Positions 3,104-61,824 of a stretch of DNA of 64,000 nucleotides are shown piece by piece. Position 1 is the first letter of the stretch. The number at the start of each line of letters is the position of its first letter. Source of the stretch: Minisyncoccota bacterium (GTDB taxonomy: Bacteria; Patescibacteriota; Minisyncoccia; Minisyncoccales; GWA2-38-27); assembly GCA_028687715.1 (NCBI GenBank), contig JAQTZP010000001.1, positions 39,876-103,875 on the forward strand, read 5' to 3'. Under the pieces are notes generated by a model. The model ran no database searches. It saw only the letters and a program-made list of their open reading frames with translations, and was not told the DNA's origin. A program made the translations under genes and the position numbers.

Positions 3104-3169
3104 ATCGTTGATTATACTATCTTACTTTTTATCATTTTTAAAGTCAAACAATGTGATATTATTAATAAT

Positions 3170-3799
3170 ATGAAGCATCCTAATTTTAATGAAGAAAAAA
3201 GATTAAAAAGGAAAGGCTATAAATTTATAATAGGATTAGATGAAGTTGGAAGAGGCTGTTTAGCCGGACCTGTTTTAGCGGCTGCAGTTTATATAACTAA
3301 TAATAAGTTTAAAGATAAAGGCATCAAAGACTCAAAAAAGCTGTCTTTTAGAAAAAGAGAACAAATCTATAATGATTTAATGGCTCGTTCTGATGTCAAA
3401 TGGGGGATAGGCAGAGTTTCAGAGAAGATAATAGATAAGATAAATATCTTTGAAGCTGCAAAGCTGGCTATGAAAAAGGCTGTTTTAGATTTAGAGAGAA
3501 AGATGAATATAAAGTCTGATTTCTTGATTTTAGACGGAAACTTCAAGATAGGTATAGATACTTTGCAGAAATCAATTATCAAAGCTGATGAGAAGGTTTT
3601 ATCCTGCGCTCTTGCTTCTATTATTGCCAAGGTCAAAAGGGATAGAATTATGTCAAATTATCACAACAGATATCCAGATTATCTTTTTAATAGGAATAAA
3701 GGGTATGGGACAAAGGTTCATATCAAGCAAATTAAAAATAACGGACCCTGTTTTATCCACAGGAAAACTTTTTTTCCTGTGAAAGAAATGATAGAATAA
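3170..3799 (+). CDS. rnhB: Ribonuclease HII
   Basis: IIGLDEVGRGCLAGPVLAAAV motif. The internal ATG at 3170 is preferred, because the 3071 start would overlap the dnaE start. Confidence 0.85.
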   Translation: MKHPNFNEEKRLKRKGYKFIIGLDEVGRGCLAGPVLAAAVYITNNKFKDKGIKDSKKLSFRKREQIYNDLMARSDVKWGIGRVSEKIIDKINIFEAAKLAMKKAVLDLERKMNIKSDFLILDGNFKIGIDTLQKSIIKADEKVLSCALASIIAKVKRDRIMSNYHNRYPDYLFNRNKGYGTKVHIKQIKNNGPCFIHRKTFFPVKEMIE

Positions 3800-3827
3800 C
3801 AGAATAATACAATAAACAACTTTTTCT

Positions 3828-7336: not shown

Positions 7337-8032
7337 ATGACTAAGGATTTTTCTTCTGTTGAAAAGAAATTAAACTTAAAATTTAAGAATAAGGATTTAT
7401 TGATTCAAGCATTTGTTCACAGGTCTTTTTTAAATGAAAATCCTGATTTCAAGATTTTTCACAATGAAAGACTGGAATTTTTAGGAGATGCAATACTGGA
7501 GCATATTGTAACAGAATATCTTTACAAAAAGTATCCCAAAGAGCCTGAAGGAGAGCTGACAATATGGAGAGCTGCTCTGGTAAACACTAAAATGCTGGCA
7601 AAAGTTGCTGAAGAGCTTGGTTTCAATGATTTTCTTCTGCTTTCCCAGGGAGAAGCTAAAGAAACAGGCAAAGCCCGCCATTATATTTTAGCTGACAGCT
7701 TTGAAGCGTTTATAGGAGCTTTTTATTTAGACCAGGGGCTTGAGAAATGCCGTGAGTTTATCAATAAAAACCTTTTAAAGGAGCTTCCTGAGATTATTGA
7801 AAGCGGTATTTACAAAGACTCAAAATCCCATTTTCAGGAAAAAGCCCAGGAGAAAAGAGGCATTACCCCGACTTACAGCGTTTTAAAAGAATCAGGTCCT
7901 GACCATAATAAGCGCTTTGTTGTCGGTGTTTTCTTGGGCAGGGAATTAATAGCAAAAGGAGAGGGTCTTTCAAAGCAGGAGGCAGAAGAAGAAGCTGCTA
8001 AAAACGCTTTAGGGAAAAAAGAATGGCAATAA
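7337..8032 (+). CDS. rnc: Ribonuclease III
   Basis: NERLEFLGDAILEHIV signature plus a C-terminal dsRBD (HNKRFVVGV...GEGLSKQEAEEEAAKNAL). Confidence 0.9.
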   Translation: MTKDFSSVEKKLNLKFKNKDLLIQAFVHRSFLNENPDFKIFHNERLEFLGDAILEHIVTEYLYKKYPKEPEGELTIWRAALVNTKMLAKVAEELGFNDFLLLSQGEAKETGKARHYILADSFEAFIGAFYLDQGLEKCREFINKNLLKELPEIIESGIYKDSKSHFQEKAQEKRGITPTYSVLKESGPDHNKRFVVGVFLGRELIAKGEGLSKQEAEEEAAKNALGKKEWQ

Positions 8033-9027: not shown

Positions 9028-9702
9028 ATGATTAAGTTTGACATTATCACAATACTTCCTGAAACCTTTGGTTCATATTTTTCAGAAAGTTTAATAGCCA
9101 GAGCATTAAAAAAGAAGATTATAAAGATAAAGGTCCATAATTTGAGGAAATGGGCGAAAGACAAGCATAAAACTGTTGATGACAGGCCTTTTGGGGGAGG
9201 TTTAGGCATGGTTATGAAGGTTGAGCCGATTTATAGGGCTGTAAAGTCGTTAAAAGGGAAATCAAAGGCTAAAAGAAGGATAATAATGTTTACTCCCAGG
9301 GGAAAGAAGTTTGACCAAAGACTTGCGTATAAGCTTTCAAAGTTTGACCAGCTTATTTTAATATGTGGAAGATATGAAGGAGTAGACGAAAGAGTTGCAG
9401 AACATATAGCTGATATGGAATTATCAATAGGGGATTATGTGCTTATGGGAGGAGAGATTCCAGCTATGGTTTTAATAGAAACTGTATCTAGACTTATTCC
9501 CGGAGTTATCTCCAAAGAAGAGCTTTTAAAAGAAAGAATAACCAAAGATAAAGGTTTTATTGAACATGTTCAGTACACTAGACCTGAAGTTTTTGAACCT
9601 GAAAAAGGAGTAAAATGGAAGGTGCCGAAGGTTCTCCTATCGGGCAATCATAAAGAAATCGAGAAATGGAGAAAGAAATATTTAAGAGTCATTGAAAAAT
9701 AA
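9028..9702 (+). CDS. trmD: tRNA (guanine37-N1)-methyltransferase
   Basis: FDIITILPETF, DDRPFGGGLGMVMK, YEGVDERV, GGEIPAMVLIE motifs. Confidence 0.9.
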   Translation: MIKFDIITILPETFGSYFSESLIARALKKKIIKIKVHNLRKWAKDKHKTVDDRPFGGGLGMVMKVEPIYRAVKSLKGKSKAKRRIIMFTPRGKKFDQRLAYKLSKFDQLILICGRYEGVDERVAEHIADMELSIGDYVLMGGEIPAMVLIETVSRLIPGVISKEELLKERITKDKGFIEHVQYTRPEVFEPEKGVKWKVPKVLLSGNHKEIEKWRKKYLRVIEK

Positions 9703-9781
9703 GTTGTTTTGTAGTAAAACTAAAAATAGTTAAAAAACAGTAAATTTATATTAAATTCTAAACTTCTAAAAGAATAAACTA

Positions 9782-9866
9782 GGGTGCGTAGTCCCGTACG
9801 GCGCGGGAGCGGTCTGTAAAACCGTCGTCATTACTGGCCCAGGTGGTTCGACTCCACTCGCACCCA
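9782..9866 (+). tRNA. tRNA-Tyr (anticodon GTA), long variable arm, no encoded CCA
   Basis: Hand fold: acceptor GGGTGCG/CGCACCC; anticodon stem GCGGT/ACCGT with loop CTGTAAA; T arm GGTGGTTCGACTCCAC. Confidence 0.8.
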
Positions 9867-10679
9867 ATGTTATCTAAAAATAGATTAGAAAAATTATATA
9901 AAAGCGGTTTATCTATAAAAAGAATATCTGAAATTGAAAATTTCCCTTACACCACTATAAAATATTGGATGAAAAGATATAATATTCCCCGCAGATCGAG
10001 AGTGGAGGCATGTTTTTACGGATATTGGGGTAAAAACAAAGAATTTTCAAGAATCCCAAAGCTTTTAACTATCGATAAAATCAAGGATTTTTATTATCGG
10101 AAGGGTTATAGTGTTAAAGAAGTAGCGGATTTACTTGGTTATTCTCCAAAAAGCATATATAGATTTATGGATAGAAATGATCTGAAGAGAAGGTCAAGTC
10201 GCGATACAAACAATCTTATTTTTATAAGGAAAAAACCTTCTTTCACTATTAAAAATGATTTAAAATTAGAAGAAGAAAAATTAAAATTAGCTGGTGTTAT
10301 GTTATATTGGGCAGAAGGAGCTAAGGATTTAAAAGAAAGAGACTGGAATACTGTTGATTTCGCAAATAGCGATCCCGAAATGATAAAAATTTTCTTAAAA
10401 TTTTTACGTGATATTTGTGGCGTCTATGAAAAACGATTAAGGGTTCAGTTATATTGTTACGTTGATCAAGATATAAATTTTTTAAAAAATCATTGGAAGA
10501 CAACTACAGGTATATCATTAGAACAATTTAATAGACCTTATATAAGAAAAGATTTTTTACCTGAAAAAAAGGGGAAAATGAAATTTGGAGTAGTTCATAT
10601 TAGATATTCGGATAAAAAGTTATTTCTACAAATAAAAGATTGGACAAGACAGTATTTGAATAAAATGTTGCCGATGTAG
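9867..10679 (+). CDS. HTH-containing LAGLIDADG-like (homing-endonuclease-like) protein filling the tRNA-Tyr/tRNA-Thr spacer
   Basis: The ATG immediately follows the tRNA-Tyr discriminator base, and the stop lies inside the first 10 nt of tRNA-Thr. Two HTH-like segments are present (LSIKRISEIENFPYTTIKYWMKRYNI; YSVKEVADLLGYSPKSIYRFM). KLAGVMLYWAEGAKD resembles a LAGLIDADG motif. Confidence 0.5.
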   Translation: MLSKNRLEKLYKSGLSIKRISEIENFPYTTIKYWMKRYNIPRRSRVEACFYGYWGKNKEFSRIPKLLTIDKIKDFYYRKGYSVKEVADLLGYSPKSIYRFMDRNDLKRRSSRDTNNLIFIRKKPSFTIKNDLKLEEEKLKLAGVMLYWAEGAKDLKERDWNTVDFANSDPEMIKIFLKFLRDICGVYEKRLRVQLYCYVDQDINFLKNHWKTTTGISLEQFNRPYIRKDFLPEKKGKMKFGVVHIRYSDKKLFLQIKDWTRQYLNKMLPM

Positions 10680-11283: not shown

Positions 11284-11793
11284 ATGCTTAATAAATTCGT
11301 CAAGGGGAAAGTTTATGTTTTTATTGATGCCGCTAATACGTTTTATGCCCAGCGGACTTTAGGATGGAAAATATCTTACGAAAAGTTAATGCGATACTTT
11401 AAAAAAGAATGCGGAGAAGATACCAAATGTTTTATTTATGCCGCCTATGACGAAAGCAAACAAGCCGAACAGAAGTTTTTAGATATGCTGGATATCAATG
11501 GCTATATTTTACGTACTAAAGCCATTAAGAAAATCCAGATAAGCGCTAACCGCGATAAACATAAGGGCAACTTGGATATGGAGTTAGCTTTTGAAATGGT
11601 GGATTTAACAGATAAATATGATACAGCGATATTGATGTCTGGAGATAGTGATTTTTCTGTCCCCATTGATAAGATTAAAAAGAGAAGAAAACAAATCATT
11701 GTTATATCCACACGAGGGCGGATTTCCCGTGAACTTTTGGAAAGAGCAAAGTATATTGATTTACGTAAATTAAGAGATGAAATTTCGCAATAA
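11284..11793 (+). CDS. NYN-domain (LabA/DUF88-like, PIN-like fold) protein
   Basis: KVYVFIDAANTFY...LDMELAFEMV...AILMSGDSDF...IIVISTRG matches the NYN/LabA acidic-residue pattern. Confidence 0.7.
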   Translation: MLNKFVKGKVYVFIDAANTFYAQRTLGWKISYEKLMRYFKKECGEDTKCFIYAAYDESKQAEQKFLDMLDINGYILRTKAIKKIQISANRDKHKGNLDMELAFEMVDLTDKYDTAILMSGDSDFSVPIDKIKKRRKQIIVISTRGRISRELLERAKYIDLRKLRDEISQ

Positions 11794-19147: not shown

Positions 19148-19154
19148 CTAAAAT

Positions 19155-19270
19155 ATAATAAAATAGCCAAAGACAATGGGTTTGCGCATCGCTTTAAATC
19201 CCATCGAGGCAGTTTATTCCCTTTTTATTTTAAAGGGAGATAGAGCTGTCTCGGACAGCTTTTTAAATTT
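19155..19270 (+). promoter_or_regulatory. Structured rplJ leader with terminator-like hairpin (L10-leader-like autoregulatory element)
   Basis: Hairpins ATGGGTTT...AAATCCCAT and TCCCTTT...AAAGGGA, then GAGCTGTC-TCG-GACAGCTTTTT immediately before the rplJ ATG. Confidence 0.45.
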
Positions 19271-19801
19271 ATGGCTTTAAAAAAAGAGCAAAAACAAAAA
19301 ATAATAGAGAAGATAAAGAATGTTTTAGAAAAACAGAAAATAGCAGTTTTTGTAAGCATAGCTGGACTAAAAACAAAAGATGTCTCTGATTTGAGAAAGA
19401 AGCTGAAAGAGAAGAACTGCGTTTTTGGCGTTGTTAAGAAAACCCTTCTAAATATCGCTTTTGATAAGAATTTTGAAGCAGATATCAAGAATTTAAAGGG
19501 GGAGATTGCCCTAATTTCAGGAATAGATGATGAGATTTCAGCGCCAAAGATTGCTAATAAATTCTCTCTTAATAATAAAAACTTAGAGATTTTAGGAGGC
19601 GTTTTCAATAACGAGTTTATAGGAAGAGAAAAGGTAATAATTCTGGCAAATATCCCTTCAAAACAAGAACTTCTGGCTCAGCTTGTTGGAACCATCAAGG
19701 CGCCGATATCCAATTTTACCAATGTTGTTTTTTCAAATATTAAAGGTCTTGTTTATACATTAAATTCCATTAAAAATAATAAAGAGGCGGTAAATCAATA
19801 A
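19271..19801 (+). CDS. rplJ: Ribosomal protein L10
   Basis: Position directly upstream of L7/L12; KIAVFVSIAGLKTKDVSDLRKKL pattern. Confidence 0.85.
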   Translation: MALKKEQKQKIIEKIKNVLEKQKIAVFVSIAGLKTKDVSDLRKKLKEKNCVFGVVKKTLLNIAFDKNFEADIKNLKGEIALISGIDDEISAPKIANKFSLNNKNLEILGGVFNNEFIGREKVIILANIPSKQELLAQLVGTIKAPISNFTNVVFSNIKGLVYTLNSIKNNKEAVNQ

Positions 19802-24856: not shown

Positions 24857-24931
24857 GGGCAATTAGCTCAGCGGCAGAGCGCATCGTTCACATCGATGAG
24901 GACGCAGGTTCAAATCCTGCATTGCCCACCA
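24857..24931 (+). tRNA. tRNA-Val (anticodon CAC), CCA encoded
   Basis: Acceptor GGGCAAT/ATTGCCC; anticodon stem CATCG/CGATG with loop TTCACAT; T arm GCAGGTTCAAATCCTGC; ACCA end. Confidence 0.85.
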
Positions 24932-25068
24932 AGACCAGATTCCTCGGCACCAAAATTGTTTTATTTTTGGATTTTCTGGTATAATAAAGTAAAAGTCGGA
25001 GAAATAAAAATAACTAACCCACAAAATCGGGTATCGCATCTACCAGATTTGTGGCATAATGAAAACAT

Positions 25069-25836
25069 ATGACAACACCATTTTTCTGGTTAATCGGAGT
25101 AATTGTTTTTTTTGTCCTCATTGGCTTGAGGGTAGTTGATCAATATGAACGGGGCGTTATCTTAACTCTTGGAAAATATACAGGTACAAGGCAACCGGGT
25201 TTAACCTGGATATTGATCGGTGTTCAAAGAATAATTAAGGTTGATTTGCGTATCGCAACCGTTGATATTCCGCAGCAGGAGGTTATTACAAAAGATAATG
25301 TAACTGTTGGGATTAATGCCGTTGTTTATTTCCGAGTAGACAGCGCAGAAAAAGCGGTTTTGGAAGTTCAAGATTTTCGCCACGCTGTTGCTCTCTACGC
25401 TCAGGCGGCATTGCGGGATGTAATTGGCGGAATAGAATTAGACTTTCTGCTTTCCGAGAGAGATAAAATTGCTGAAGAAATAAAAAAGATCGTTGATGTG
25501 GCAACTGACCCTTGGGGTATTGATGTTTCTATAATTAAAATTCAGGATATTGAACTTCCAGCCGATATGAAGCGAGTAATGGCTAAGCAGGCAGAGGCTG
25601 AACGAGAAAGAAGGGCAATTATTATCCGAGCAGAAGGAGAATACATAGCATCTCAAAAACTATCCCAAGCGGCGCAGGTTCTTAGTTCTGTGCCTGGAGG
25701 AATCTCAATGCGAACTCTTCAAACGATTGAAAAGATTAACCCTGACCCTTCAAAAACCGTACTCTTTGCCTTGCCGATTGAGTTTATGGAAGGGATTAAA
25801 TCCCTTTCCAGTTTTCTAAAAGAAAAAGGTAAATAA
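25069..25836 (+). CDS. SPFH/band-7 (stomatin/prohibitin-like) membrane protein
   Basis: N-terminal TM helix, VVDQYERGVILTLGKY...PGLTWI, and QAEAERERRAIIIRAEGE. Confidence 0.85.
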   Translation: MTTPFFWLIGVIVFFVLIGLRVVDQYERGVILTLGKYTGTRQPGLTWILIGVQRIIKVDLRIATVDIPQQEVITKDNVTVGINAVVYFRVDSAEKAVLEVQDFRHAVALYAQAALRDVIGGIELDFLLSERDKIAEEIKKIVDVATDPWGIDVSIIKIQDIELPADMKRVMAKQAEAERERRAIIIRAEGEYIASQKLSQAAQVLSSVPGGISMRTLQTIEKINPDPSKTVLFALPIEFMEGIKSLSSFLKEKGK

Positions 25837-25850
25837 ATAGAATCTTAAAG

Positions 25851-26111
25851 ATGTTAATAAACATATTAAAAAGATTGTTTATTCCGGATTTTGCGTTCTT
25901 TCAAGATATTCAAGATATTACTAAAGAAAATCTTGAATTGATGAAAAGGCGCCGTGGTATAAGAAATTACAACGAATGGCTTAAAAATAAAAGGGCATGT
26001 TTAGAAGCGATTAAAAAAGAACGAGAAAAAAAATCATTAAAGATTCCTGAATCTTATAGCGAAAAAATCAACTTGCTTGAGGAAGAAATTAAAGAAACTG
26101 GATGGTTTTAA
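25851..26111 (+). CDS. Hypothetical protein (86 aa)
   Basis: ORF only. Confidence 0.35.
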   Translation: MLINILKRLFIPDFAFFQDIQDITKENLELMKRRRGIRNYNEWLKNKRACLEAIKKEREKKSLKIPESYSEKINLLEEEIKETGWF

Positions 26112-26921
26112 TTACTTAACTTCTTTAAGAAATTGTTCTGCAAGATCAGCGGTATCCTTGCTGCTTTGGTAAAAAGATTTCCAGACAACTACAATATCAG
26201 CGTCATTAAATATCGCCCGCTGCGCCTCTTTTAACGTATCTCCGCCGGCGATGGCAATAAGAATATTATAACTTCCCTTGATTCTCCTGATTTCGTGCAG
26301 GGGAATTTGTTTCTCTTTGTTAAGTCTTTCCTCATCTACGCCGCGGTGAAGAACGACTACTCGTGGCACTTTTTTTAATTGGCGCAAGACCGAAAGAGGA
26401 TACTCAACATTCATCATATCCACTATTGCGTCTAATCCTAAATCTTCGCACTTTTGAATAAAAGCATTAAGGGATTCAATAGGTGAATGCCCGAGCGCCA
26501 CCGCGGCATCTGCGCCAGCGGCTGCGGCTATTTCAACTTCTGTTTCGCCTCTGTCCATCATCTTTAAGTCCGCTACAACATAGGGGATTATTTCTGATTC
26601 TGGCAATGGCTTTTGAGCTGTTTTCGGCTGAGAATAATTTTTTACAGCAGCTTTCAAAAATAACGAAACTAACGAATTCGAGCCTGAAAAAGATGTTGCT
26701 GGTTCTAGCGTTTGCCCCCAAATACGCTGTTTATACCATTGCTTAATTTGTCTTATTCCCTCCTTTCCATAGCGTTTAATAAGCGGCGTTCCCGCTTCAA
26801 TCAAAATTCTGTCGCTAATGGGGACTTGAGCGATTATTTTGTGCGCTTCTTCAAGCGTACTGTTGAGTGCAATTTGAAGATAACGTTTTCTAGGACTAAG
26901 TTTTGATATTATTTTATTCAT
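26112..26921 (-). CDS. OMP-decarboxylase-family protein, 3-hexulose-6-phosphate synthase-like, with an internal ~45-aa insertion
   Basis: YLQIALN...ILIEAGTPLIKRYG, VADLKMMDRGETEVEIAAAAGAD, VLHRGVDE and IAIAGG line up with the HPS/KGPDC pattern. Confidence 0.55.
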   Translation of the reverse strand: MNKIISKLSPRKRYLQIALNSTLEEAHKIIAQVPISDRILIEAGTPLIKRYGKEGIRQIKQWYKQRIWGQTLEPATSFSGSNSLVSLFLKAAVKNYSQPKTAQKPLPESEIIPYVVADLKMMDRGETEVEIAAAAGADAAVALGHSPIESLNAFIQKCEDLGLDAIVDMMNVEYPLSVLRQLKKVPRVVVLHRGVDEERLNKEKQIPLHEIRRIKGSYNILIAIAGGDTLKEAQRAIFNDADIVVVWKSFYQSSKDTADLAEQFLKEVK

Positions 26922-26984
26922 ATCTTACTGTACTTTTATTATATTAAGAATTCAAAAATAAAACAATCTCGTAAAATAATCAAT

Positions 26985-27060
26985 GGGCGGGAGGCAGCGG
27001 CTTTTTCCTAAAGTCGAGAATTTCTGATAAAATAAGTTCGAGCGGAGTCATATAGATACA
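26985..27060 (+). repeat. Degenerate fourth copy (D) of the junction element: half hairpin plus promoter-like TGATAAAAT plus AGTTCGAGC
   Basis: gggcgggaggcagcggctttttcc...gaatttctgataaaataagttcgagcggagtcatata aligns with copies B and C (58360-58420; 61665-61735). Confidence 0.5.
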
Positions 27061-27135
27061 TATTAATAATTTTGACAAATTATAAGCGGGTAGTATTATT
27101 AATCAATACAGCTCTTTTTTTCAAAGGAGAATCAG

Positions 27136-55496: not shown

Positions 55497-55504
55497 TTCA
55501 TTAT

Positions 55505-55578
55505 GCGAGGTTAGTATACTGGCATTATGCAACCTTCCCAAGGTTGAGAAGCGGGTTCGATTCCCGTACCTCGCTCCA
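55505..55578 (+). tRNA. tRNA-Gly (anticodon CCC), CCA encoded
   Basis: Acceptor GCGAGGT/ACCTCGC; anticodon stem CAACC/GGTTG with loop TTCCCAA; T arm GCGGGTTCGATTCCCGT. Confidence 0.8.
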
Positions 55579-55692
55579 CAATCAAACTTTTTTCGCTTTT
55601 CTTGAAATTTTTCGTGGCGGCGCTTTGCGCCGCCCGCGAAAATTTGGGAAAATTTCCAGAAAGTCAGATTATTGTGCGTTTATACAACCTCA

Positions 55693-55868
55693 CTCGAACT
55701 CATTTTATCAAAAATTCTTGAGAAAAACAATTGTCCCGCCCCGCTTGTGCGGGGCGGGACAGAAAACCCAAAAGTCGCTCGGGCGGGGCGGGAAGAAAAA
55801 GGGGTGTGGGGAAAATGAATTCCCGCCCCCGCCCTCGCTTTCTATGCGGGAAAAATTTATTTTTTAAA
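55693..55868 (-). repeat. Junction element copy A (two GC-rich hairpins, T-tract, promoter-like box); perfect inverted copy of 58231..58406
   Basis: Base-by-base comparison with the reverse complement of 58231-58406: 176/176 identical. Hairpin 1 is GTCCCGCCCCGC-TTGT-GCGGGGCGGGAC. Hairpin 2 is GGGCGGGGCGGGAA...TTCCCGCCCCCGCCC. Confidence 0.9.
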
Positions 55869-56318
55869 AATCATTTTAATCCTCGGCTCACCGTCTCCAA
55901 AATAATTTTCCTTTGGTTTTCCGACTTGTTTAAATCCAAAAAATTTATATATATGCATCGCTGCTGCATTGTCTGGATGTGTAAGCAGTTCAACTATTTT
56001 TACTTCTTTCAAATCTTCGAGTAAAATTTTTATGGCTTCTTTTCCAATTCCTTGGCCCTTATATTTTGAATTAACACAGAGCCCACTAATATATGCTGTA
56101 TTTTTATTTTTCATCTCATATGAAATATCACCCACGATTTCACCGTCCATAATAATGGCATAAACCATTGCATTTCCTTTTGCCAGCTCATCCAGCCATT
56201 CTTTTTCAGTCAGCATTGCTGAATATGTTTTTGAAGACGCAGTTTTTTCAATTTCAATCAATGTTGGAATGTCTTCCTCCTCAATTTTTCGTAAACTGAT
56301 TTTTAATTTATTTTTCAT
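55857..56318 (-). CDS. GNAT family N-acetyltransferase
   Basis: CVNSKYKGQGIGKEAIKILLE (acetyl-CoA loop Q/RxxGxG/A). The last 4 codons lie inside repeat A. Confidence 0.8.
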   Translation of the reverse strand: MKNKLKISLRKIEEEDIPTLIEIEKTASSKTYSAMLTEKEWLDELAKGNAMVYAIIMDGEIVGDISYEMKNKNTAYISGLCVNSKYKGQGIGKEAIKILLEDLKEVKIVELLTHPDNAAAMHIYKFFGFKQVGKPKENYFGDGEPRIKMIFKK

Positions 56319-56322
56319 AGGA

Positions 56323-56715
56323 TTACCTATTCAGTAAGAAATTTTTAATCTCTGGAGATATGTCTTGAATTTTCTGGTATTTAATTATTAAGTCGGCAAT
56401 CCCCCTTGTTGTGTCCTTAATTTGTGTTTCGTGTTTCATAATAACAATAACTTTTTTACCAAAAGCGTAAGCAATCCCGGCCTCATATGCCCTACCAGTC
56501 GGCTTGTCTGTCATATCGATCAAAAGAGCATCAGATTTTTTAATTTCGTCTTTTGTTTTTTGCATTAAATCTTTTGGATTATCAAAAACTTTTTGATAAT
56601 TTTCTACATCTCGTATAAAACAAAAGTCTTCAAAACCTGCGGTTTTTACTAAAGAACAAAGACTCTCTATATTTTGTTTGCTATCACCAAAAGATGCGGT
56701 AATAAAAATTCTCAT
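56323..56715 (-). CDS. Nucleoside 2-deoxyribosyltransferase-like small Rossmannoid protein
   Basis: MRIFITASF...ALLIDMTDKPTGRAYEAGIAYAFGKKVIVIMKH. Confidence 0.5.
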   Translation of the reverse strand: MRIFITASFGDSKQNIESLCSLVKTAGFEDFCFIRDVENYQKVFDNPKDLMQKTKDEIKKSDALLIDMTDKPTGRAYEAGIAYAFGKKVIVIMKHETQIKDTTRGIADLIIKYQKIQDISPEIKNFLLNR

Positions 56716-56716
56716 T

Positions 56717-57265
56717 TTATTTTTTTGAAATTAAACTCAAAAGTAAGGGAAACTTTTTGTATGGCTGATTAAACATATTAGAACCCATATGGCCTTCGTG
56801 TTTTATAATTTGCGTGCCACCAAGATTGTCAAAAAATAACCTACCTTGTTTATCGTTGTATTGCCATGGGTCATCATCTGAATTTATGTAATAGAATTCT
56901 TCTGCTTTGTCTTTTATTTTTGCCCAATCAAAATCATCAACGCTGTTTTCACTGTCTGCATTTTTCCGTAATGCTTTAGCATAACCAGATACCAAAATCG
57001 CCTGTTTGATTTTTACATCCAGTTTTTCTAAAACACTTGGAATTATTTGAGCGCCGGCCGAATGCCCAATAATAACTGTTTCAGAAGTAAACTCCCAATT
57101 TTCCAAAATAAAAGGCAACCAATCTTTGCGATTTGGTTTGTCGCTTGCAGGAAGTTGCGGAAGCCAGACTTTATATCCTATTTTTTCTAATTCCTCTTTA
57201 AGCCAAGGAAACCAAAAATCGGTTGGTTTGTCTTTTGTTCCGTGTAATATAATTGCGTTTTTCAT
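56717..57265 (-). CDS. Alpha/beta serine hydrolase (YdeN/RBBP9-like)
   Basis: AIILHGT..., nucleophile elbow IIGHSAGA, C-terminal HEGHMG. Confidence 0.65.
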   Translation of the reverse strand: MKNAIILHGTKDKPTDFWFPWLKEELEKIGYKVWLPQLPASDKPNRKDWLPFILENWEFTSETVIIGHSAGAQIIPSVLEKLDVKIKQAILVSGYAKALRKNADSENSVDDFDWAKIKDKAEEFYYINSDDDPWQYNDKQGRLFFDNLGGTQIIKHEGHMGSNMFNQPYKKFPLLLSLISKK

Positions 57266-57344
57266 AATTATTTTATCCTACCAAAAAATTGTGCTAATTA
57301 AAAGTTAAAGCCCCGTCGATTGCTCGTACGGGGCTCTTGCGATG

Positions 57345-57995
57345 TCAGCTGCAGCGCAGGCACTTCTTGCGATTGTGCCGGGACAGAATCCTTACCGTAC
57401 TAGACGGAGTTGGAATCTGCGATTCGATTTCGTAGACACAATTGAAGACGATGCCACAGCTTTTGCACTTTCCGACTTGCTCACTACTATCAGGTACAGG
57501 ACCCTGAACAGACTTGTTCCACCCTGGAGCGTGGGTTTCGCAAAGTCCGCCACCGGGCGTGGGTGTGTCGCAGAGTGCACACGTGCACTGGCAACTCTCC
57601 AAGTGTTCGTAACAGACGTAACAAATACACTTGCAGAAAGCAGTATCACGGTTGCACTTGTAGCACCAGGCAGGATCGTCGTAATCGTCATCATCATAGC
57701 CGTCGTCCGGCTCGATGATAGAACGGTTTTCTTCGATTGCCCGGAATTCCTCCTGCATCCACTTCCACTCTTGGTCGGTGATTTGGCCAGAGATCAGGTG
57801 AGCTGAGTTAAAGTCACCTGCCTCGGGACAATTACCACCAGTCACCTTTTTCAAGGCGCAGTCGTAGCACAACGGCTCGTCCTGCTTACGCCCAAGAGCG
57901 TACCCCCAATATGTGATTTCGTCGGAATCATTCCTCTCAAAGAACTTGTTGCAAATTTTACACTTCTGGCTTGAAACTTTCTTCTGCTTCGACAT
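57345..57995 (-). CDS. G+C-rich Cys-rich protein (216 aa) with several CxxC pairs and an acidic DDGYDDDDYDD patch
   Basis: KCKICNKFF...CYDC, WCYKCNRDTAFCKCICYVCYEHLESCQCTCALCD, KCKSCG, KKCLRCS. Own promoter (TTGACA-17-TAATAT at 58178-58150, minus strand). Terminator AGCCCCGT...ACGGGGCT (57310-57336). Confidence 0.6.
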   Translation of the reverse strand: MSKQKKVSSQKCKICNKFFERNDSDEITYWGYALGRKQDEPLCYDCALKKVTGGNCPEAGDFNSAHLISGQITDQEWKWMQEEFRAIEENRSIIEPDDGYDDDDYDDPAWCYKCNRDTAFCKCICYVCYEHLESCQCTCALCDTPTPGGGLCETHAPGWNKSVQGPVPDSSEQVGKCKSCGIVFNCVYEIESQIPTPSSTVRILSRHNRKKCLRCS

Positions 57996-58230
57996 TTCTC
58001 AATCTCCTTTTACCGGGTTTGTAAACAAACTGACGATAATTGGAGATATACCCGCTTGCTCCTTTCGGAGGGGTGAAGGGCTGAACCAATCTCTCTTGAT
58101 CCTGATTCCCAACAGACCAAGAGAATATATCTAAATTTGCTCCGTAATTATATTATCATATTATTAAATATATGTCAATAGTGTGTGGTCTAAACAGTGT
58201 GGGTGGCCACAACAACACAATAAAAAAATA

Positions 58231-58406
58231 TTTAAAAAATAAATTTTTCCCGCATAGAAAGCGAGGGCGGGGGCGGGAATTCATTTTCCCCACACCCCTT
58301 TTTCTTCCCGCCCCGCCCGAGCGACTTTTGGGTTTTCTGTCCCGCCCCGCACAAGCGGGGCGGGACAATTGTTTTTCTCAAGAATTTTTGATAAAATGAG
58401 TTCGAG
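58231..58406 (+). repeat. Junction element copy B (archetype orientation: hairpin 2, hairpin 1 plus T-tract, TTGTTT-17-TAAAAT, ATGAGTTCGAG)
   Basis: Identical to the reverse complement of 55693-55868. Lies in the divergent region between the Cys-rich gene and the kinase-like gene. Confidence 0.9.
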
Positions 58407-58514
58407 CAGAATTGTATATATGCTCCAGTATATTTACAACCACGCTTTAAATAAGACGTTGTTGTCTTATTTAAAGATCGTTCTTTCACAACAAAAATAA
58501 GGAGGACTCTGAAA

Positions 58515-59144
58515 ATGATCGTGCAAAAGTCTCTGTTCGTTACTTTTGAGGGCCCCAACGGCATCGGGAAGACTACCGTTATCAAAGATGTCGCGCAAAA
58601 ACTGAGCGTTTTGGGATGCAGTCTTCTGTGTACTAAAGAACCCACCGGTTCGTCGCTTGGTGACTTCTTGAGAAAAGCAGAGGAGTTATACGGGAGAGAA
58701 GTTCTCGCCTGTATTGCGGCGGCGGATCGATATTTTCACATAGAAAAAGAAATCGCACCAGCGTTAGCGACAGGTAGAATCGTTCTTTCCGACCGATACG
58801 TCGAATCGTCACTGGTACTTCAACGTCTTGACGGGTGTTCGCTCGAATTTATCTGGAGCATTAACTCGCAAATTCTTGTTCCTGATTTAAGCATCATTTT
58901 CTTCGCTGATCCTGTGATCATCGGACAACGACTCGTAACTAAGAGAACAAAGTTGAGTCGTTTTGAGCGCGATGAAACGAGAAAGCAAGAAATGTTCTTC
59001 TACCACGAAGCGGCAGAGTTCATCGCTCAAAAAGGATTTCATGTCCTTTTGTTGGAGAACGAAAAACAATCAGTGGGTGATACTTCTGAATACATTGTGG
59101 TTGAAGTCCAAAGGCTACTCAAAAAAAAGGAGGAAGCATCATGA
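58515..59144 (+). CDS. Thymidylate-kinase-family P-loop protein (dTMP-kinase-like)
   Basis: LFVTFEGPNGIGKTT (P-loop), TKEPTGSSLG, SDRYVESSLVLQ (DRY/DRH-like). AAGGAGG RBS. Confidence 0.65.
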   Translation: MIVQKSLFVTFEGPNGIGKTTVIKDVAQKLSVLGCSLLCTKEPTGSSLGDFLRKAEELYGREVLACIAAADRYFHIEKEIAPALATGRIVLSDRYVESSLVLQRLDGCSLEFIWSINSQILVPDLSIIFFADPVIIGQRLVTKRTKLSRFERDETRKQEMFFYHEAAEFIAQKGFHVLLLENEKQSVGDTSEYIVVEVQRLLKKKEEAS

Positions 59145-60211
59145 AAAAACCGATCATTTCCGTTAACCAAATGATGTCCTGTTATTTCCGTACTTCAGTT
59201 CAATCACCTTACCGGAAAGCGCTCGTGCAGATTACCGAATGGTGCAATCTGCATTGTTCGCATTGCTTTGTCTCGGCCGGACAATACGGTGACACCATGT
59301 CGCTGGAAAGTGTCCGTGATATTCTTGTGCCTCGTCTCAAAGAATGTCGCGTGCTGAACGTAACGCTTACTGGCGGCGAGCCATTCGCGCACCCTAACGT
59401 CATCGAGATTGTATCGCTTTGCAAAGATGCTGGCATGAAAGTTGGCATCTGTACGAACGCAACTTGCATTAGCGAAGATCAGATGAAAGCGCTCGCAGCG
59501 TTGGGAGCACATTGCAACGTCAGTTTGGACGGTTTCTCTCCGGAGAGTCATGGCAGGTTTCGCGGCGATAAAGCGTCGTTTGCAACCACCATTTCAACCA
59601 TTGAGATGGTGGCCAGATACGGTTTGTTGCAAGGGTTTTTGGTGACTCCTAACAATCTCGCCGAGGTCGAGGAGTATGCAAAGATTTGCGAGTTCGCTAC
59701 GGTAAACGGTGCAACGTATGTGTTGATGAATCCGCTTTCGTCCATGGGAAGAGGCGTAAAGACGGCGGGAAAGCTCGGAGTTTCCAACGAGGTAATGCGT
59801 CAGATTGCCAACGTAACTTCACAGTTCGCGGACAAAGTCGAGATAGTACCTATCCGATTTCCGAACGAAAAGAAGTTGCCGCTTACGGGATGCGAAGCGG
59901 GCAATATTATCTACGTTTTTACCCTCGGCGAACTCACGGTATGTCCCTATCTAGTGTTTTCAGCACGGACGCCGCAGAGTCAACACAAGGCAGAAGAATT
60001 TATCGTTGGCAATATCTTTCGCGATGCCAATATTGCCGTTCGCCTTGATGAATACAAACTCCTTGAGCGGTATCGTCTCGGTGGTAATCCGACATGCGGA
60101 GGATGTCGTCTTAACGCCGAGTGCGGCAAAGGATGTCCCGCAGCGATCATTTCCTCTGGCAAGCGAATAGAGGAAATGGACGCAGAGGTGTGTCCGGTCT
60201 TCATTCGGTAA
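59141..60211 (+). CDS. Radical SAM enzyme with C-terminal SPASM/twitch-type auxiliary-cluster domain
   Basis: CNLHCSHCF (CxxxCxxC), LTGGEPFAHP. C-terminal GCEAG...CPY...CGGCRLNAECGKGCPA...C. ATGA overlap with the kinase-like gene. Confidence 0.8.
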   Translation: MKKPIISVNQMMSCYFRTSVQSPYRKALVQITEWCNLHCSHCFVSAGQYGDTMSLESVRDILVPRLKECRVLNVTLTGGEPFAHPNVIEIVSLCKDAGMKVGICTNATCISEDQMKALAALGAHCNVSLDGFSPESHGRFRGDKASFATTISTIEMVARYGLLQGFLVTPNNLAEVEEYAKICEFATVNGATYVLMNPLSSMGRGVKTAGKLGVSNEVMRQIANVTSQFADKVEIVPIRFPNEKKLPLTGCEAGNIIYVFTLGELTVCPYLVFSARTPQSQHKAEEFIVGNIFRDANIAVRLDEYKLLERYRLGGNPTCGGCRLNAECGKGCPAAIISSGKRIEEMDAEVCPVFIR

Positions 60212-61617: not shown

Positions 61618-61620
61618 CCC

Positions 61621-61740
61621 TCTTTTTGCCCGCGAACCGACAGGTTTTCCTGCCCGCCCCCGCCGTTCGGCGGGACGGGACGTTGTTTTTTATAGGAATT
61701 CTTAATAAAATGAGTTCGAGCGTAGTTGTGAATATACTCC
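61621..61740 (+). repeat. Junction element copy C (diverged: single imperfect GC hairpin plus T-tract, TTGTTT-17-TAAAAT, ATGAGTTCGAGC)
   Basis: GCCCGCCCCCGCC-GTTC-GGCGGGACGGGAC followed by GTTGTTTTTT, then cttaataaaatgagttcgagcgtagttgtgaatatactcc. Aligns with copy B. Confidence 0.7.
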
Positions 61741-61824
61741 ATAATCAAACTTAACTCTTTTTCAGATACTTTTTGATGGACTTCCATTTTTAAACCCATA
61801 TTTTATTATTAAATAAAAATAATA

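Follow-up and report, generated by a model that had tools for sequence, protein, structure and literature searches.

The perfect inverted repeat that brackets four genes in the window (the whole 64,000-nucleotide stretch of DNA analyzed here) is probably the intrinsic inverted repeat of a decayed element that integrated at tRNA-Gly(ccc) by means of a large serine recombinase (LSR) and has lost that recombinase; the element probably belongs to a large family of LSR elements in Patescibacteria. On this reading, which is drawn from sequence comparison, the feature would be a fossil of horizontal transfer and not a phase-variation switch. The 55.6- to 58.4-kb region, probably out to 61.7 kb, would then be an island built at tRNA-Gly, which would explain its odd GC-rich hairpins. 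The features discussed are collected in Table 1.

Table 1. Features of the tRNA-Gly island, related cores, and matching assembled contigs (window coordinates)
Feature	Position	Strand	Description and evidence
Core D	27018..27063	+	Diverged fourth copy; nhmmer E 3.7e-11
tRNA-Gly(ccc)	55505..55578	+	ARAGORN; Rfam 55.9 bits; 3' end CTCCA
Imperfect palindrome	55579..55671		Two "post-tRNA" (P) arms sharing one hairpin, 55612-55640
LSR remnant	55617..55721	+	Last 34 codons (...AALCAARENLGKFPESQIIVRLYNLTRTHFIKNS) and stop; BLASTP versus C terminus of L101 LSR
Core A	55672..55717	-	Candidate attP left arm with putative promoter; nhmmer E 1.8e-16
Arm A	55693..55868	-	Core positions 25-1, terminator hairpin 55732-55761, second long GC hairpin
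GNAT acetyltransferase, cargo	55857..56318	-	Pfam Acetyltransf_1, E 1e-16
Nucleoside 2-deoxyribosyltransferase-like, cargo	56323..56715	-	Pfam Nuc_deoxyrib_tr, E 1.3e-6, 29.0 bits versus cutoff of 28.8
Serine hydrolase, cargo	56717..57265	-	Pfam Ser_hydrolase, E 2e-13
216-aa Cys-rich protein, cargo	57345..57995	-	No family match; raised G+C
Arm B	58231..58406	+	Hairpin 58265-58318, terminator 58338-58367, core positions 1-25
Arm B promoter-like site	58369-58397	+	-35 TTGTTT 58369-58374, -10 TAAAAT 58392-58397
Core B	58382..58427	+	attR-type, ends CTCCA, then kinase/radical SAM genes; nhmmer E 2.6e-17
Core C and upstream terminator hairpin	61647..61741	+	Core 61696-61741; alignment, nhmmer E 2.1e-12, terminator scan
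Logan contig L001	55839-57680		
Logan contig L002	58377-63082		
Logan contig L003	58382-60442		

The initial annotation had reported arm A to be a perfect match to the reverse complement of arm B, and the two agree at 176 of 176 positions. When mismatches are allowed, the inverted repeat extends to 203 nt at 95% identity (55676-55878 and 58221-58423). The repeat is 49% G+C in a window of 36% G+C, and no second repeat of comparable length was found between 54 and 60 kb, so this is not a chance match. The accompanying proposal of very recent duplication or gene conversion is a fair inference as to recent origin or homogenization. Equivalent arms in related elements are 97 to 100% identical over 141 to 394 nt in 6 of 10 measured pairs and are only 29 to 56 nt long in the other four.

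Each arm is made up of two GC-rich hairpins, one of which is an intrinsic terminator, and the first 25 nt of a 46-nt core. In the terminators on the plus (58338-58367) and minus (55761-55732) strands, 11 of the 13 bp of the stem are G-C, and the tail is ATTGTTTTTC. A TTGTTT-17 nt-TAAAAT motif with an upstream TG, read directly from the sequence, follows the plus-strand terminator; the promoter scan did not return it because its -35 element matches at only 3 of 6 positions. The outward-facing terminator-plus-promoter unit that had been ascribed to each arm is thus present in both. Arm A is the end of the GNAT operon, which it would terminate, while arm B would direct a terminator and a putative promoter at the kinase/radical SAM genes. 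The GNAT gene does run into arm A as annotated, though by its stop and last three codons only (55857-55868) rather than by four codons and the stop. The sole open reading frame in the 176 to 203 nt of hairpins and core is an 8-codon remnant. A composite transposon was considered and rejected, as the arms contain no insertion-sequence copies encoding a transposase and no open reading frame beyond that remnant.

The four enclosed genes form a single leftward string with its own internal promoter-like site, placed at 58178-58150 by the promoter scan, within the enclosed segment and ahead of the Cys-rich gene. The Cys-rich protein had no match in Pfam or PADLOC. In the G+C profile, its gene, which lies inside the arms, groups with the kinase and radical SAM genes outside them, a grouping that the decayed-element model does not explain.

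The 46-nt core (GAATTTTTGATAAAATGAGTTCGAGC...TATAAATAC(A/T)CCA) resembles the T-loop-to-CCA end of a tRNA. The strand opposite it codes for the C-terminal 16 residues of the LSR, and a stop (TGA, TAA, or TAG) directly follows ...KNS on that strand in 108 of 116 unique cores. An nhmmer core profile found four cores (A to D) in the window, all downstream of tRNA genes. Core A has diverged in its outer 21 nt and carries CACAA instead of CTCCA as its crossover pentamer, while the 50 nt at 58378-58427, which include core B, are 100% identical to the LSR-adjacent core of a relative, L012. Core C, a diverged third copy oriented like core B, probably represents the attR left by an older insertion at this tRNA-Gly. 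Core D lies 2.1 kb downstream of tRNA-Val(cac), and a P-like sequence stands directly after that tRNA (CACCA followed by AGACCAGA).

The core is present in at least 135 public contigs, and all of those with a taxon name are Patescibacteria metagenome-assembled genomes (MAGs) except one (L010); the survey was seeded with exact 20- to 25-mers of the core, so that conservation of those positions is by construction. The 25-mer search of one-genome-per-species contigs gave 15 loci. Twelve of these records bear titles of Patescibacteria lineages (Saccharibacteria, Roizman-, Shapiro-, and Giovannonibacteria, and "Ca. Geothermocultor"); of the other three, one has the title "Gammaproteobacteria" and two have no more than "bacterium." The 20-mer search gave at least 120 metagenome stretches, in records that carry no taxon names, and viral contigs contained no match to the core. 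Hairpin sequences vary widely among the relatives, while the core is constant. Outward-facing cores bracket 1.7 to 7.2 kb in 13 of 16 multicore loci, as they do in the window.

Of the 101 cores followed by at least 1.2 kb of sequence, 31 have an LSR open reading frame starting 108 to 569 nt downstream. The protein has Resolvase, Recombinase, and Zn_ribbon_recom domains; among solved structures, the A118 integrase is the nearest to it (E 3e-11). Relatives that encode their own recombinase include L009, L012, L054, L074, L079, L101, and L124. An antisense tRNA lies at the 3' end of the LSR gene in 17 of 19 core-LSR loci with enough sequence; the exceptions are L051, which has no tRNA there, and L107, whose tRNA escaped detection only because the LSR there is broken into two open reading frame fragments. 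The end of the core and the end of the tRNA share a covarying 5 to 6 nt in 14 of the 17 pairs compared: cores ending in CTCCA are paired with Gly(tcc) and Cys tRNAs, and those ending in CACCA with Arg, Val, Leu, and Ile tRNAs. At tRNA-Gly(ccc), the unusual ends CACCC and CTCAA are likewise common to core and tRNA, and beyond the shared end the sequences following core and tRNA are identical for the next 39 to 133 nt. We read the core in these relatives as the left arm of the attP of an LSR that would integrate at tRNA 3' ends.

The architecture of the relatives recurs in at least 13 unrelated contigs, one of them 354 kb long. Two inverted repeats of 310 and 138 nt, both 100% identical, meet within 4 nt in L054, and repeats of 193 and 136 nt meet within 6 nt in L079; repeats of 114 to 135 nt surround the LSR in L009, L012, and L016. 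In L101, which has a 236-nt perfect inverted repeat, the LSR ends inside the core with ...ARTHFIKNS and a stop. The end and start of L124 overlap by 127 nt, and joining them into a circle yields a complete 534-aa LSR that ends in ...ARTHFIKNL and a stop. L124 may thus be a free circle; L124 and L101 are good evidence for a free form but fall short of proof, as a graph walk through an integrated element could also yield both contigs. The natural LSR tail was present in 18 of the best 120 LSR homologs in assembled sequences. Many other homologs inspected switch to antisense-tRNA-like tails after ...ILE, and a pattern match confirmed this switch for only 16. Cargo varies among elements with homologous arms and includes a BsaWI-type restriction-modification system with a SMODS-domain nucleotidyltransferase, a LexA-methylase with a His-Me nuclease, and a Mur-ligase-like gene.

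These observations are consistent with the following mechanism. The free element would be a circle (about 5.5 kb for L124, the only closed example) that two inverted copies of a module (hairpins-core-CTCCA-P) divide into an LSR arc and a variable cargo arc. The core copy upstream of the LSR reads as a putative extended -10 promoter, and the opposite strand of the other copy would supply the last 16 LSR residues and the stop. Crossover would take place within the final 5 to 6 nt (CTCCA or CACCA) common to the core and the tRNA end. Integration would split the 3' module copy into attL (tRNA-O-P) and attR (core-O-host) and leave the other copy whole, so that an integrated element would show two abutting inverted-repeat pairs, one for the cargo and one for the LSR.

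In the window, the 3'-terminal CTCCA of tRNA-Gly(ccc) would be the integration point on the attL side, and core B at the far end of the segment ends in the same five nucleotides. Positions 2281 to 2414 of L074 match window positions 55502 to 55635, and positions 4230 to 4377 match 55618 to 55765. The two matches flank the LSR gene in L074, 1.8 kb apart, and their window counterparts overlap within the hairpin. We interpret the palindrome beside the tRNA as the scar of a recombinase gene deletion, in which the palindromic hairpins of the two P arms apparently allowed slippage that removed the LSR arc. The cargo arc would have been retained with its arms and its GNAT, deoxyribosyltransferase-like, hydrolase, and Cys-rich genes. 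The LSR remnant shares 20 of 34 residues with the C terminus of the L101 LSR, and the same stop (BLASTP E 2e-10). The 64-kb window contains no LSR gene and no serine-recombinase motif in any frame, so that membership of the window copy in the element family rests on remnants and synteny, and with only the 34-aa C-terminal remnant left it is classed as a decayed relic and not as an active member. Arm identity in the window ends at core position 25, whereas it extends as far as the crossover, at position 46, in intact relatives. The two P arms beside tRNA-Gly are visibly diverged from each other, compared with 98 to 100% identity in intact relatives. To accommodate this divergence, an additional recombination or replacement step has to be postulated, for which we suggest an exchange inside the core's most conserved block.

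More tentatively, and with slightly less than balanced confidence, we propose that these loci belong to a very large Patescibacteria family of 5- to 8-kb elements, comprising at least about 8,000 recombinase clusters at 90% identity and characterized by a three-job core, gene-splitting integration, a flip-regulated recombinase, and defense cargo. If so, the 46-nt core would be at once an attP arm mimicking a tRNA 3' end, the recombinase promoter (in one copy), and the last 16 recombinase codons (in the inverted copy), and integration into a tRNA 3' end would sever the end of the recombinase gene. Such an overlap of attachment site, putative promoter, and coding sequence in one short stretch would be an unusual economy of sequence. 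Flipping of the arcs could toggle the recombinase between its own promoter with a foreign tail and tRNA-driven expression with the native tail. Patescibacteria have tiny genomes, their mobile elements are little described, and our literature searches gave no description of these Patescibacteria (CPR) LSR elements. The elements may be a main vehicle for restriction-modification and other defense cargo in such reduced genomes. A 46-nt marker open to simple pattern searching, with predictable attL, attR, and attP, would ease the mapping of islands and cargo in thousands of MAGs, and the family would supply natural serine integrases with defined tRNA-end targets.

Known systems share parts of this arrangement. 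The tycheposons of Prochlorococcus are small elements with variable cargo that integrate at tRNA genes, build islands by tandem pile-up, and leave degenerate remnants, and an LSR was present in 27 of 937 integrase-carrying elements screened, tycheposons and cryptic elements included (bioRxiv 10.1101/2020.12.28.424599). The present elements resemble them in each of these respects and have the recombinase type of that minority, but their attachment site lies inside the recombinase 3' end and has an inverted duplicate upstream of the gene, which yields two abutting long inverted repeats and not direct partial-tRNA repeats. Furthermore, no replication genes were seen in the present elements, and their hosts are Patescibacteria. 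Phage large serine integrases (A118/LI, Bxb1, and phiC31 type) have the same Resolvase, Recombinase, and zinc ribbon domains. They recombine conservatively at short attachment sites, with crossover in a few shared bases; a single attP usually lies beside the int gene and not inside it, and the targets are mostly protein coding or intergenic, not tRNA 3' ends. The present attP arm differs in doubling as putative promoter and coding sequence.

To our knowledge, the placement of attP within the gene for the recombinase had hitherto been characteristic of archaeal tyrosine integrases. The archaeal virus SSV1 encodes a tyrosine recombinase with attP within int; integration splits the gene into two substantial parts, and there is no inverted attP duplicate. 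The present elements would likewise partition the recombinase gene upon integration, with the last 16 LSR codons replaced by a tail read antisense through the tRNA. Long inverted repeats also hold the recombination sites of the yeast 2-micron circle (FLP/FRT; FLP is a tyrosine recombinase) and of the P1 C and Mu G segments (Cin and Gin, small serine invertases), with the recombinase gene in or beside one arc and the arcs flipping relative to each other. The likeness lies in a circle or segment divided by site-bearing long inverted repeats. Inversion is the purpose of those systems (copy-number amplification or tail-fiber switching), whereas the present sites have the appearance of integration sites, with no visible function that depends on orientation.

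It is improbable that the arms are ordinary dispersed intergenic repeats, i.e., REP/BIME- or MITE-like terminator elements that are inverted by chance and unrelated to site-specific recombination. The REP/BIME elements of enterobacteria are GC-rich palindromes that form mosaic arrays after genes and have terminator-like activity; the arms are similarly GC-rich, palindromic, mosaic, and modular, follow genes in an AT-rich genome, and have many copies at contig ends. However, GC-rich hairpins of this type are confined within the 64 kb to the tRNA-Gly island (55.6 to 61.7 kb), the four cores are all tRNA linked, and the repeats are low in copy number, with no RAYT transposase seen. Neither the long, conserved, nonpalindromic core that codes for the end of the LSR, nor its strong link to LSR genes, antisense tRNAs, and covarying ends, nor the outward-facing geometry of multicore loci fits such repeats, and no target-site duplication was seen.

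Somewhat less probable still is a programmed invertible switch, in which flipping of the segment by an invertase or homologous recombination would alter transcription of the flanking operons. The perfect flanking repeat and the outward terminator-promoter units would suit a switch, as would the serine recombinases that accompany the element family. The initial annotation held that the segment is invertible by homologous recombination, which is plausible: one related element has its cargo in opposite orientations across metagenome assemblies (L020 and L113 versus L049), although L049 and L113 end 104 nt into the second arm and their orientation may be the assembler's choice. Its further claim, that flipping would place different genes behind each promoter, is contradicted by the geometry. 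The putative promoters point outward from within the identical arms, so that a crossover there alters neither the arms nor anything beyond them; the enclosed genes carry a promoter-like site of their own and, whichever way the segment lies, run into the same terminator. The window has no dedicated invertase, in relatives the LSR stands beside the cargo arc, and the enclosed genes are unrelated from element to element, which fits cargo and not a switch. Under the decayed-element reading, the cargo could still be inverted by RecA-type recombination between the arms, but expression beyond the segment would not be affected.

An assembly artifact, whether a collapsed or duplicated repeat or a chimeric join, is very improbable. 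Logan assemblies of three SRA runs (SRR22315504, SRR22315507, and SRR22315508) are 100% identical to the window, and these independent assemblies give the two different repeat junctions. Their contigs end 30 nt inside the arms, which is where a genuine two-copy repeat would break contigs in a k=31 graph. This confirms the GNAT-arm and arm-kinase junctions; the short-read contigs break at the arms, and the confirmation does not extend to the orientation of the enclosed segment. The flanks of the arms are distinct and biologically coherent (the GNAT stop codon on one side, the LSR remnant on the other), and the recurrence of the architecture in unrelated contigs also argues against an artifact. 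Equally hard to credit is a structured small RNA or riboswitch-like leader in two copies, for although the arm ends in a terminator and its fold is much more stable than those of shuffled controls (-80.7 kcal/mol, z = -6.3, plus strand of arm B), terminator hairpins account for this stability, the hairpins differ widely among relatives around a fixed core, a transcript from arm A would enter a tRNA gene antisense, and the arms match no Rfam family (the best, Pxr, at 26.1 bits versus a gathering score of 80), with only tRNAs and an L10 leader passing the gathering score in the whole window. The contig L004, which is not an empty site, represents a strain in which core B is preceded by another hairpin module.

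Two arms of a perfect inverted repeat enclose the four-gene segment, as the initial annotation had described. All bases of 55693-55868 match the reverse complement of 58231-58406 (176/176), and Logan assemblies of three SRA runs (SRR22315504, SRR22315507, and SRR22315508) are 100% identical to the window, which establishes the repeat as real. The Logan contigs break 30 nt inside the arms. This is how a true repeat behaves in a k=31 graph and therefore supports the repeat, but not the orientation of the segment that it encloses. With mismatches allowed, the repeat extends to 203 nt at 95% identity (55676-55878 / 58221-58423). Perfect identity ends at ...AATGAGTTCGAG, and likeness goes on for ∼20 bases further. 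A third, diverged copy of the outer ∼130 nt was found by alignment at 61620-61750(+), between the CYTH and GH3 genes. The arms are probably recent or homogenised. Their G+C content is 49% versus 36% for the window, and the arm strand folds with a predicted energy of -80.7 kcal/mol (z = -6.3). An Rfam scan of the arms and the whole window returned tRNAs and one L10 leader only, and no family for the arms. The ribosomal protein L10 leader (RF00557) lies at 19149-19274(+) and scores 46.5 bits against a gathering score of 44.

Each arm contains a putative outward-facing terminator-promoter unit, as had been proposed. Because these units are inside the arms and face outward, a crossover between the arms alters nothing outside them, which contradicts the idea that inversion would rewire promoters toward tRNA-Gly and the kinase/radical SAM operon. 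Inside the segment, a promoter-like site (58178-58150) belongs to the cargo, which meets the same terminator in either orientation. The repeat is not a promoter switch. The claim that the segment can invert holds insofar as two perfect 176-bp inverted copies are a substrate for homologous recombination, but relatives with opposite orientations are suggestive only. In three contigs of a related element (L020, L113, and L049), the flank, the large serine recombinase (LSR) gene, and the first arm line up without rearrangement at 100% identity, and the cargo past the first arm has one orientation in L020 and L113 and the opposite orientation in L049. Both L049 and L113 stop 104 nt into the second arm, and the difference in cargo orientation may be the assembler's choice.

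At its outer end, each arm runs into a 46-nt core, GAATTTTTGATAAAATGAGTTCGAGCnnnnTTGTATAnAnnC(T/A)CCA, usually with a GC hairpin and a T tract upstream. A search of one-genome-per-species contigs with a core 25-mer gave 15 loci, 12 of them in records titled as Patescibacteria lineages, including Saccharibacteria, Roizmanbacteria, Shapirobacteria, Giovannonibacteria, and Ca. Geothermocultor. Two others (L011 and L012) are titled only "bacterium" or "uncultured bacterium," and L010 (CAYIVY010000050.1) is a MAG labelled Gammaproteobacteria, probably a binning error rather than a non-Patescibacteria host. A 20-mer matched at least 120 stretches in metagenome contigs, whose records are without taxon names, and a core search of viral contigs gave zero matches. 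Many core copies are at contig ends, as repeats would be. The consensus of 100 unique cores is ...CTGGtTTTTTTCAG / GAATTTTTGATAAAATGAGTTCGAGCggAATTGTATAaATAC(A/T)CCA / AAAtcAGACtTtC, in which core positions 6 to 25 were set by the search seed and are conserved by construction.

When the core is compared with tRNA 3' halves, AATGAGTTCGAG...CTCCA aligns to GGTTCGAATCC...GCTCCA, and the core looks like a decayed T-loop-to-CCA segment of a tRNA. It is at once the left arm of attP, the coding end of the LSR, and, in the inverted copy that lies upstream of the gene, a promoter-like sequence. Transcription starts are predicted near core position 23 (box TGATAAAAT) and/or close to the final A of CTCCA (box TATAAA). 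A 16-codon ORF opposite the core was considered as a leader peptide or attenuator and rejected: copies A and C have no downstream gene on that strand, and the ORF is the recombinase C terminus. A small ORF on the promoter strand (MSSS...) was also rejected, its length varying among 8, 14, and 34 codons as read from the sequence.

The core-adjacent ORFs of four loci (L006, L009, L012, and L016) contain Resolvase, Recombinase, and Zn_ribbon_recom domains, and the closest solved structure is phage A118 integrase. All 135 loci collected from public contigs were included in a survey of LSR and tRNA genes. An LSR ORF starts 108 to 569 nt downstream on the same strand in 31 of the 101 cores with enough downstream sequence, and an antisense tRNA gene is found at the LSR 3' end in 17 of the 19 loci with at least 2.3 kb downstream. 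In one of the two exceptions, L107, a tRNA-Glu is present and was missed since the LSR is split into two ORF fragments; in the other, L051, a tRNA is absent from this position. Target tRNAs include Gly(ccc), Gly(tcc), Val, Cys, Leu, Arg, Ile, and Pro.

Core and tRNA share their last 5 to 6 nt (O), which co-vary, in 14 of 17 compared pairs. Cores ending in CTCCA are partnered with tRNA-Gly(tcc) and tRNA-Cys, and those ending in CACCA with tRNA-Arg, -Val, -Leu, and -Ile. Two unusual ends at tRNA-Gly(ccc), CACCC and CTCAA, are likewise common to core and tRNA. For the three nonmatching pairs, the wrong tRNA or end was compared (L012 and L034) or the two sides have diverged (L070). The 39 to 133 nt after the shared end (P, the post-tRNA arm) are identical between the core side and the tRNA side. 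Together, the co-varying ends and the identical sequence that follows them argue for conservative site-specific recombination with the crossover within O.

When the LSR was used in a protein search, no fewer than 7,979 clusters scored E ≤ 1e-50; where they have a name, it is only "recombinase family protein," from CPR MAGs. The natural tail ...ART(H/Y)FI(K/R)N is present in 18 of the best 120 homologues. Many others that were inspected have, after ...ILE, tails such as RVTGIEP..., which is the tRNA T-arm read backwards; pattern matching on the other 102 homologues located the junction in 18 and confirmed an antisense-tRNA-like tail in 16. In integrated copies, the LSR frame crosses P' and O' as xTG-GAG, which is the frame of the natural tail. 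A stop is found on the opposite strand directly after ...KNS in 108 of 116 unique cores (TGA in 85, TAA in 14, and TAG in 9). Integration swaps out the last 16 residues of the LSR. The integrated LSR ORF can remain open for up to ∼140 codons as it crosses the P arm and at least one tRNA gene in antisense; such tails were seen in L009, L012, L016, and many of the best 120 homologues.

Features of the window (window coordinates) and repeats of two related loci, L054 and L079 (coordinates of each locus)
Feature	Coordinates	Strand	Remarks
tRNA-Gly	55505-55578	+	Ends CTCCA; leftmost part of island
Imperfect palindrome, 93 nt	55579-55671		Two P arms with one hairpin in common
Core A	55672-55717	reversed	Followed by arm A, four cargo genes, arm B
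Arm A	55693-55868	-	
GNAT acetyltransferase	55857-56318	-	Enclosed
Nucleoside 2-deoxyribosyltransferase-like	56323-56715	-	Enclosed; weak match
Serine hydrolase	56717-57265	-	Enclosed
216-aa Cys-rich protein	57345-57995	-	Enclosed; no family match
Arm B	58231-58406	+	
Arm part 1, long GC hairpin	58265-58279 paired with 58305-58318	B(+)/A(-)	
Arm part 2, terminator hairpin	58338-58367	B(+)/A(-)	Perfect 13-bp stem, then ATTGTTTTTC
Arm part 3, TTGTTT	58369-58374	B(+)	
Arm part 4, TAAAAT	58392-58397	B(+)	TG just before; 17 bases after TTGTTT
Core B	58382-58427		Ends CTCCA; followed by kinase / radical SAM genes
Sequence right of core B	58428 onward		GTATATTTACAACCACGC
Logan contig L001	55839-57680		
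Logan contig L002	58377-63082		
Logan contig L003	58382-60442		
L054 cargo repeat	4961-5270 / 9493-9802		310 nt, 100%; brackets 4.2 kb
L054 LSR repeat	9799-9936 / 11387-11524		138 nt, 100%; meets cargo repeat within 4 nt, at O
L079 cargo repeat	3704-3896 / 5453-5645		193 nt
L079 LSR repeat	5640-5775 / 7385-7520		136 nt; meets cargo repeat within 6 nt

The far end of the L054 LSR repeat sits inside tRNA-Arg(cct), and the repeats that bracket the LSR in L009, L012, and L016 are 114 to 135 nt long. As in the window, outward-facing cores surround 1.7 to 7.2 kb in 13 of 16 multicore loci found by profile search; the other three comprise two inward-facing arrangements, one with the LSR between the cores, and one direct arrangement. 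Arm identity is 96 to 99% over 141 to 394 nt in 6 of 10 measured outward-facing pairs and usually ends 19 to 22 nt past core position 25, which is at O. The remaining four pairs (L014, L048, L056, and L085) have arms of 29 to 56 nt at 86 to 93% identity. The three site types, core-O-host (attR), core-O-P, and tRNA-O-P (attL), are explained by a circle that carries two inverted hairpins-core-O-P modules and integrates through one of them. The module used would be split into attL and attR, and the second would stay whole in the middle.

A free form of the element probably exists. In the contig L101, the LSR ORF (1962-3731, minus strand) ends ...ESQILEHLYDCARTHFIKNS with its stop within the core, and a 236-nt perfect inverted repeat surrounds it. 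The 5,670-nt contig L124 has a 127-nt overlap between its end and start, as circular contigs show, and closing the circle gives a complete 534-aa LSR ending ...ARTHFIKNL and a stop. Both are assemblies and could also be graph walks through an integrated copy. A third candidate, L047 (5,851 nt, with 694-nt perfect terminal inverted repeats), was rejected since at least one end is probably mis-extended: identity continues ∼305 nt past the crossover on both sides versus the 138-nt P arms of related integrated copies. Cargo is unrelated among the other elements with homologous arms. L047 carries a BsaWI-type restriction enzyme, two methylases, and a SMODS nucleotidyltransferase, L054 a LexA-methylase fusion and a His-Me nuclease, and L034 a Mur-ligase-like protein. 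Cargo that differs between homologous arms behaves as a cargo arc should.

The window contains no LSR gene. Among the intact-LSR loci compared in detail, the most similar are L074 and L081, likewise at tRNA-Gly(ccc). L074 positions 2281-2414 correspond to window 55502-55635 and positions 4230-4377 to window 55618-55765. Between these matches L074 has a 1.8-kb LSR gene; the corresponding window stretches run into each other, and their overlap falls in the palindromic hairpin. This hairpin reads alike on both strands, so that its two occurrences in the inverted P arms also count as direct repeats. Slippage from one to the other would remove the LSR and yield this scar. Window 55617-55721(+) reads AALCAARENLGKFPESQIIVRLYNLTRTHFIKNS followed by a stop, is 59% identical to the LSR C terminus, and stops at the same place. 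We consider it likely that an LSR integrative element at tRNA-Gly has decayed and that the window repeat is its remaining inverted repeat.

Some observations do not fit a simple decay of such an element. Arm identity in the window stops at core position 25, not at O; the outer 21 nt of core A, O included (CACAA), differ from core B; and the P arms at tRNA-Gly are visibly diverged in alignment versus 98 to 100% identical in intact relatives. An extra event would be needed, for which an exchange or gene conversion resolved in the most conserved block of the core is one candidate. Furthermore, the raised G+C at 57.3 to 60.2 kb extends from the Cys-rich gene through arm B into the kinase and radical SAM genes and thus crosses the proposed boundary.

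Older insertions may be present as well. Core C (61696-61741) has the same orientation as core B and is followed by P-like sequence, consistent with its being the attR of an earlier insertion at tRNA-Gly, in the style of tandem accretion. Another diverged core, the fourth, occupies 27018-27063 (E 4e-11); tRNA-Val(cac), 2.1 kb upstream of it, is itself followed by P-like AGACCAGA. The stretch 24857-27063 may be a second, older insertion site; the intervening genes, including those for an SPFH/Band 7 protein and an OMP-decarboxylase-like protein, look like housekeeping genes. The contig L004 (SRR22315508) has core B and the kinase gene as in the window from 58378 onward, with another hairpin module upstream. 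Its positions 1-311 are a 311-nt GC-rich hairpin array that includes, oppositely oriented, the motif found in the loop of the window's long hairpin (GGGGGTGTGGGGG). These sequences suggest a different element at the same site in another strain.

The segment is flanked on the left by LepA, DivIC, and tRNA-Gly(ccc) and on the right by a thymidylate-kinase-like gene, a radical SAM gene, an EEP nuclease/phosphatase, and a CYTH protein. PADLOC gave zero matches to the four enclosed genes, and an identical-protein look-up for the Cys-rich protein and DivIC found none on record. In the Cys-rich protein, CxxC-type cysteine pairs are numerous and one stretch is acidic (DDDDYDD); it lacks a Pfam or PADLOC match, and its gene is divergent from the kinase/radical SAM pair and has the same raised G+C, which is 43 to 48% across all three genes. 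The kinase and radical SAM genes overlap by 4 nt (58515-60211). PADLOC partially matched the kinase gene to VakA, a model of viperin-associated kinases (E 1e-5), and the radical SAM protein to pVip models (E 1e-19, residues 30 to 140 only). The C terminus of the latter is Cys-rich and SPASM-like in look, unlike viperins.

The nearest concept to these elements is that of the tycheposons of Prochlorococcus, which are tRNA-targeting, cargo-carrying elements that build islands by tandem accretion; in the tycheposon screen, a minority of integrase-carrying elements had an LSR (10.1101/2020.12.28.424599). Judged by domain content, the enzyme described here is an ordinary large serine integrase. The elements differ from known systems in having an attP with an inverted duplicate upstream of the recombinase gene and in the three roles of one short sequence. 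The layout with inverted duplicates is like that of the yeast 2-micron plasmid or the phage P1 C segment. A further difference is the position of attP inside the 3' end of the recombinase gene, which we take to be a trait of SSV1-type archaeal tyrosine integrases. A search of the open-access literature, with the core string itself included as a query, gave no description of these elements. The window copy looks like a relic of a family that merits systematic study.

Fragments of tRNA-Gly were observed in L012 (JBDRST010000025.1). Positions 1869-2161 comprise three tRNA-Gly-like 5' halves in tandem, with CCCCC(T/A)CAAATTTTT after each one, and then an intact tRNA-Gly(ccc), AAAAATTTGTGGGGGG, and a tRNA 3' half. 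The acceptor strand of this 3' half forms perfect pairs with the third 5' half, and the trailer is complementary to the leader, as in split tRNA genes of archaea. ARAGORN accepted most trial joins of 5' and 3' halves as cloverleaf tRNAs, with an anticodon that varies with the exact join. A split tRNA, a nested tRNA, or debris from recombination could account for the fragments.
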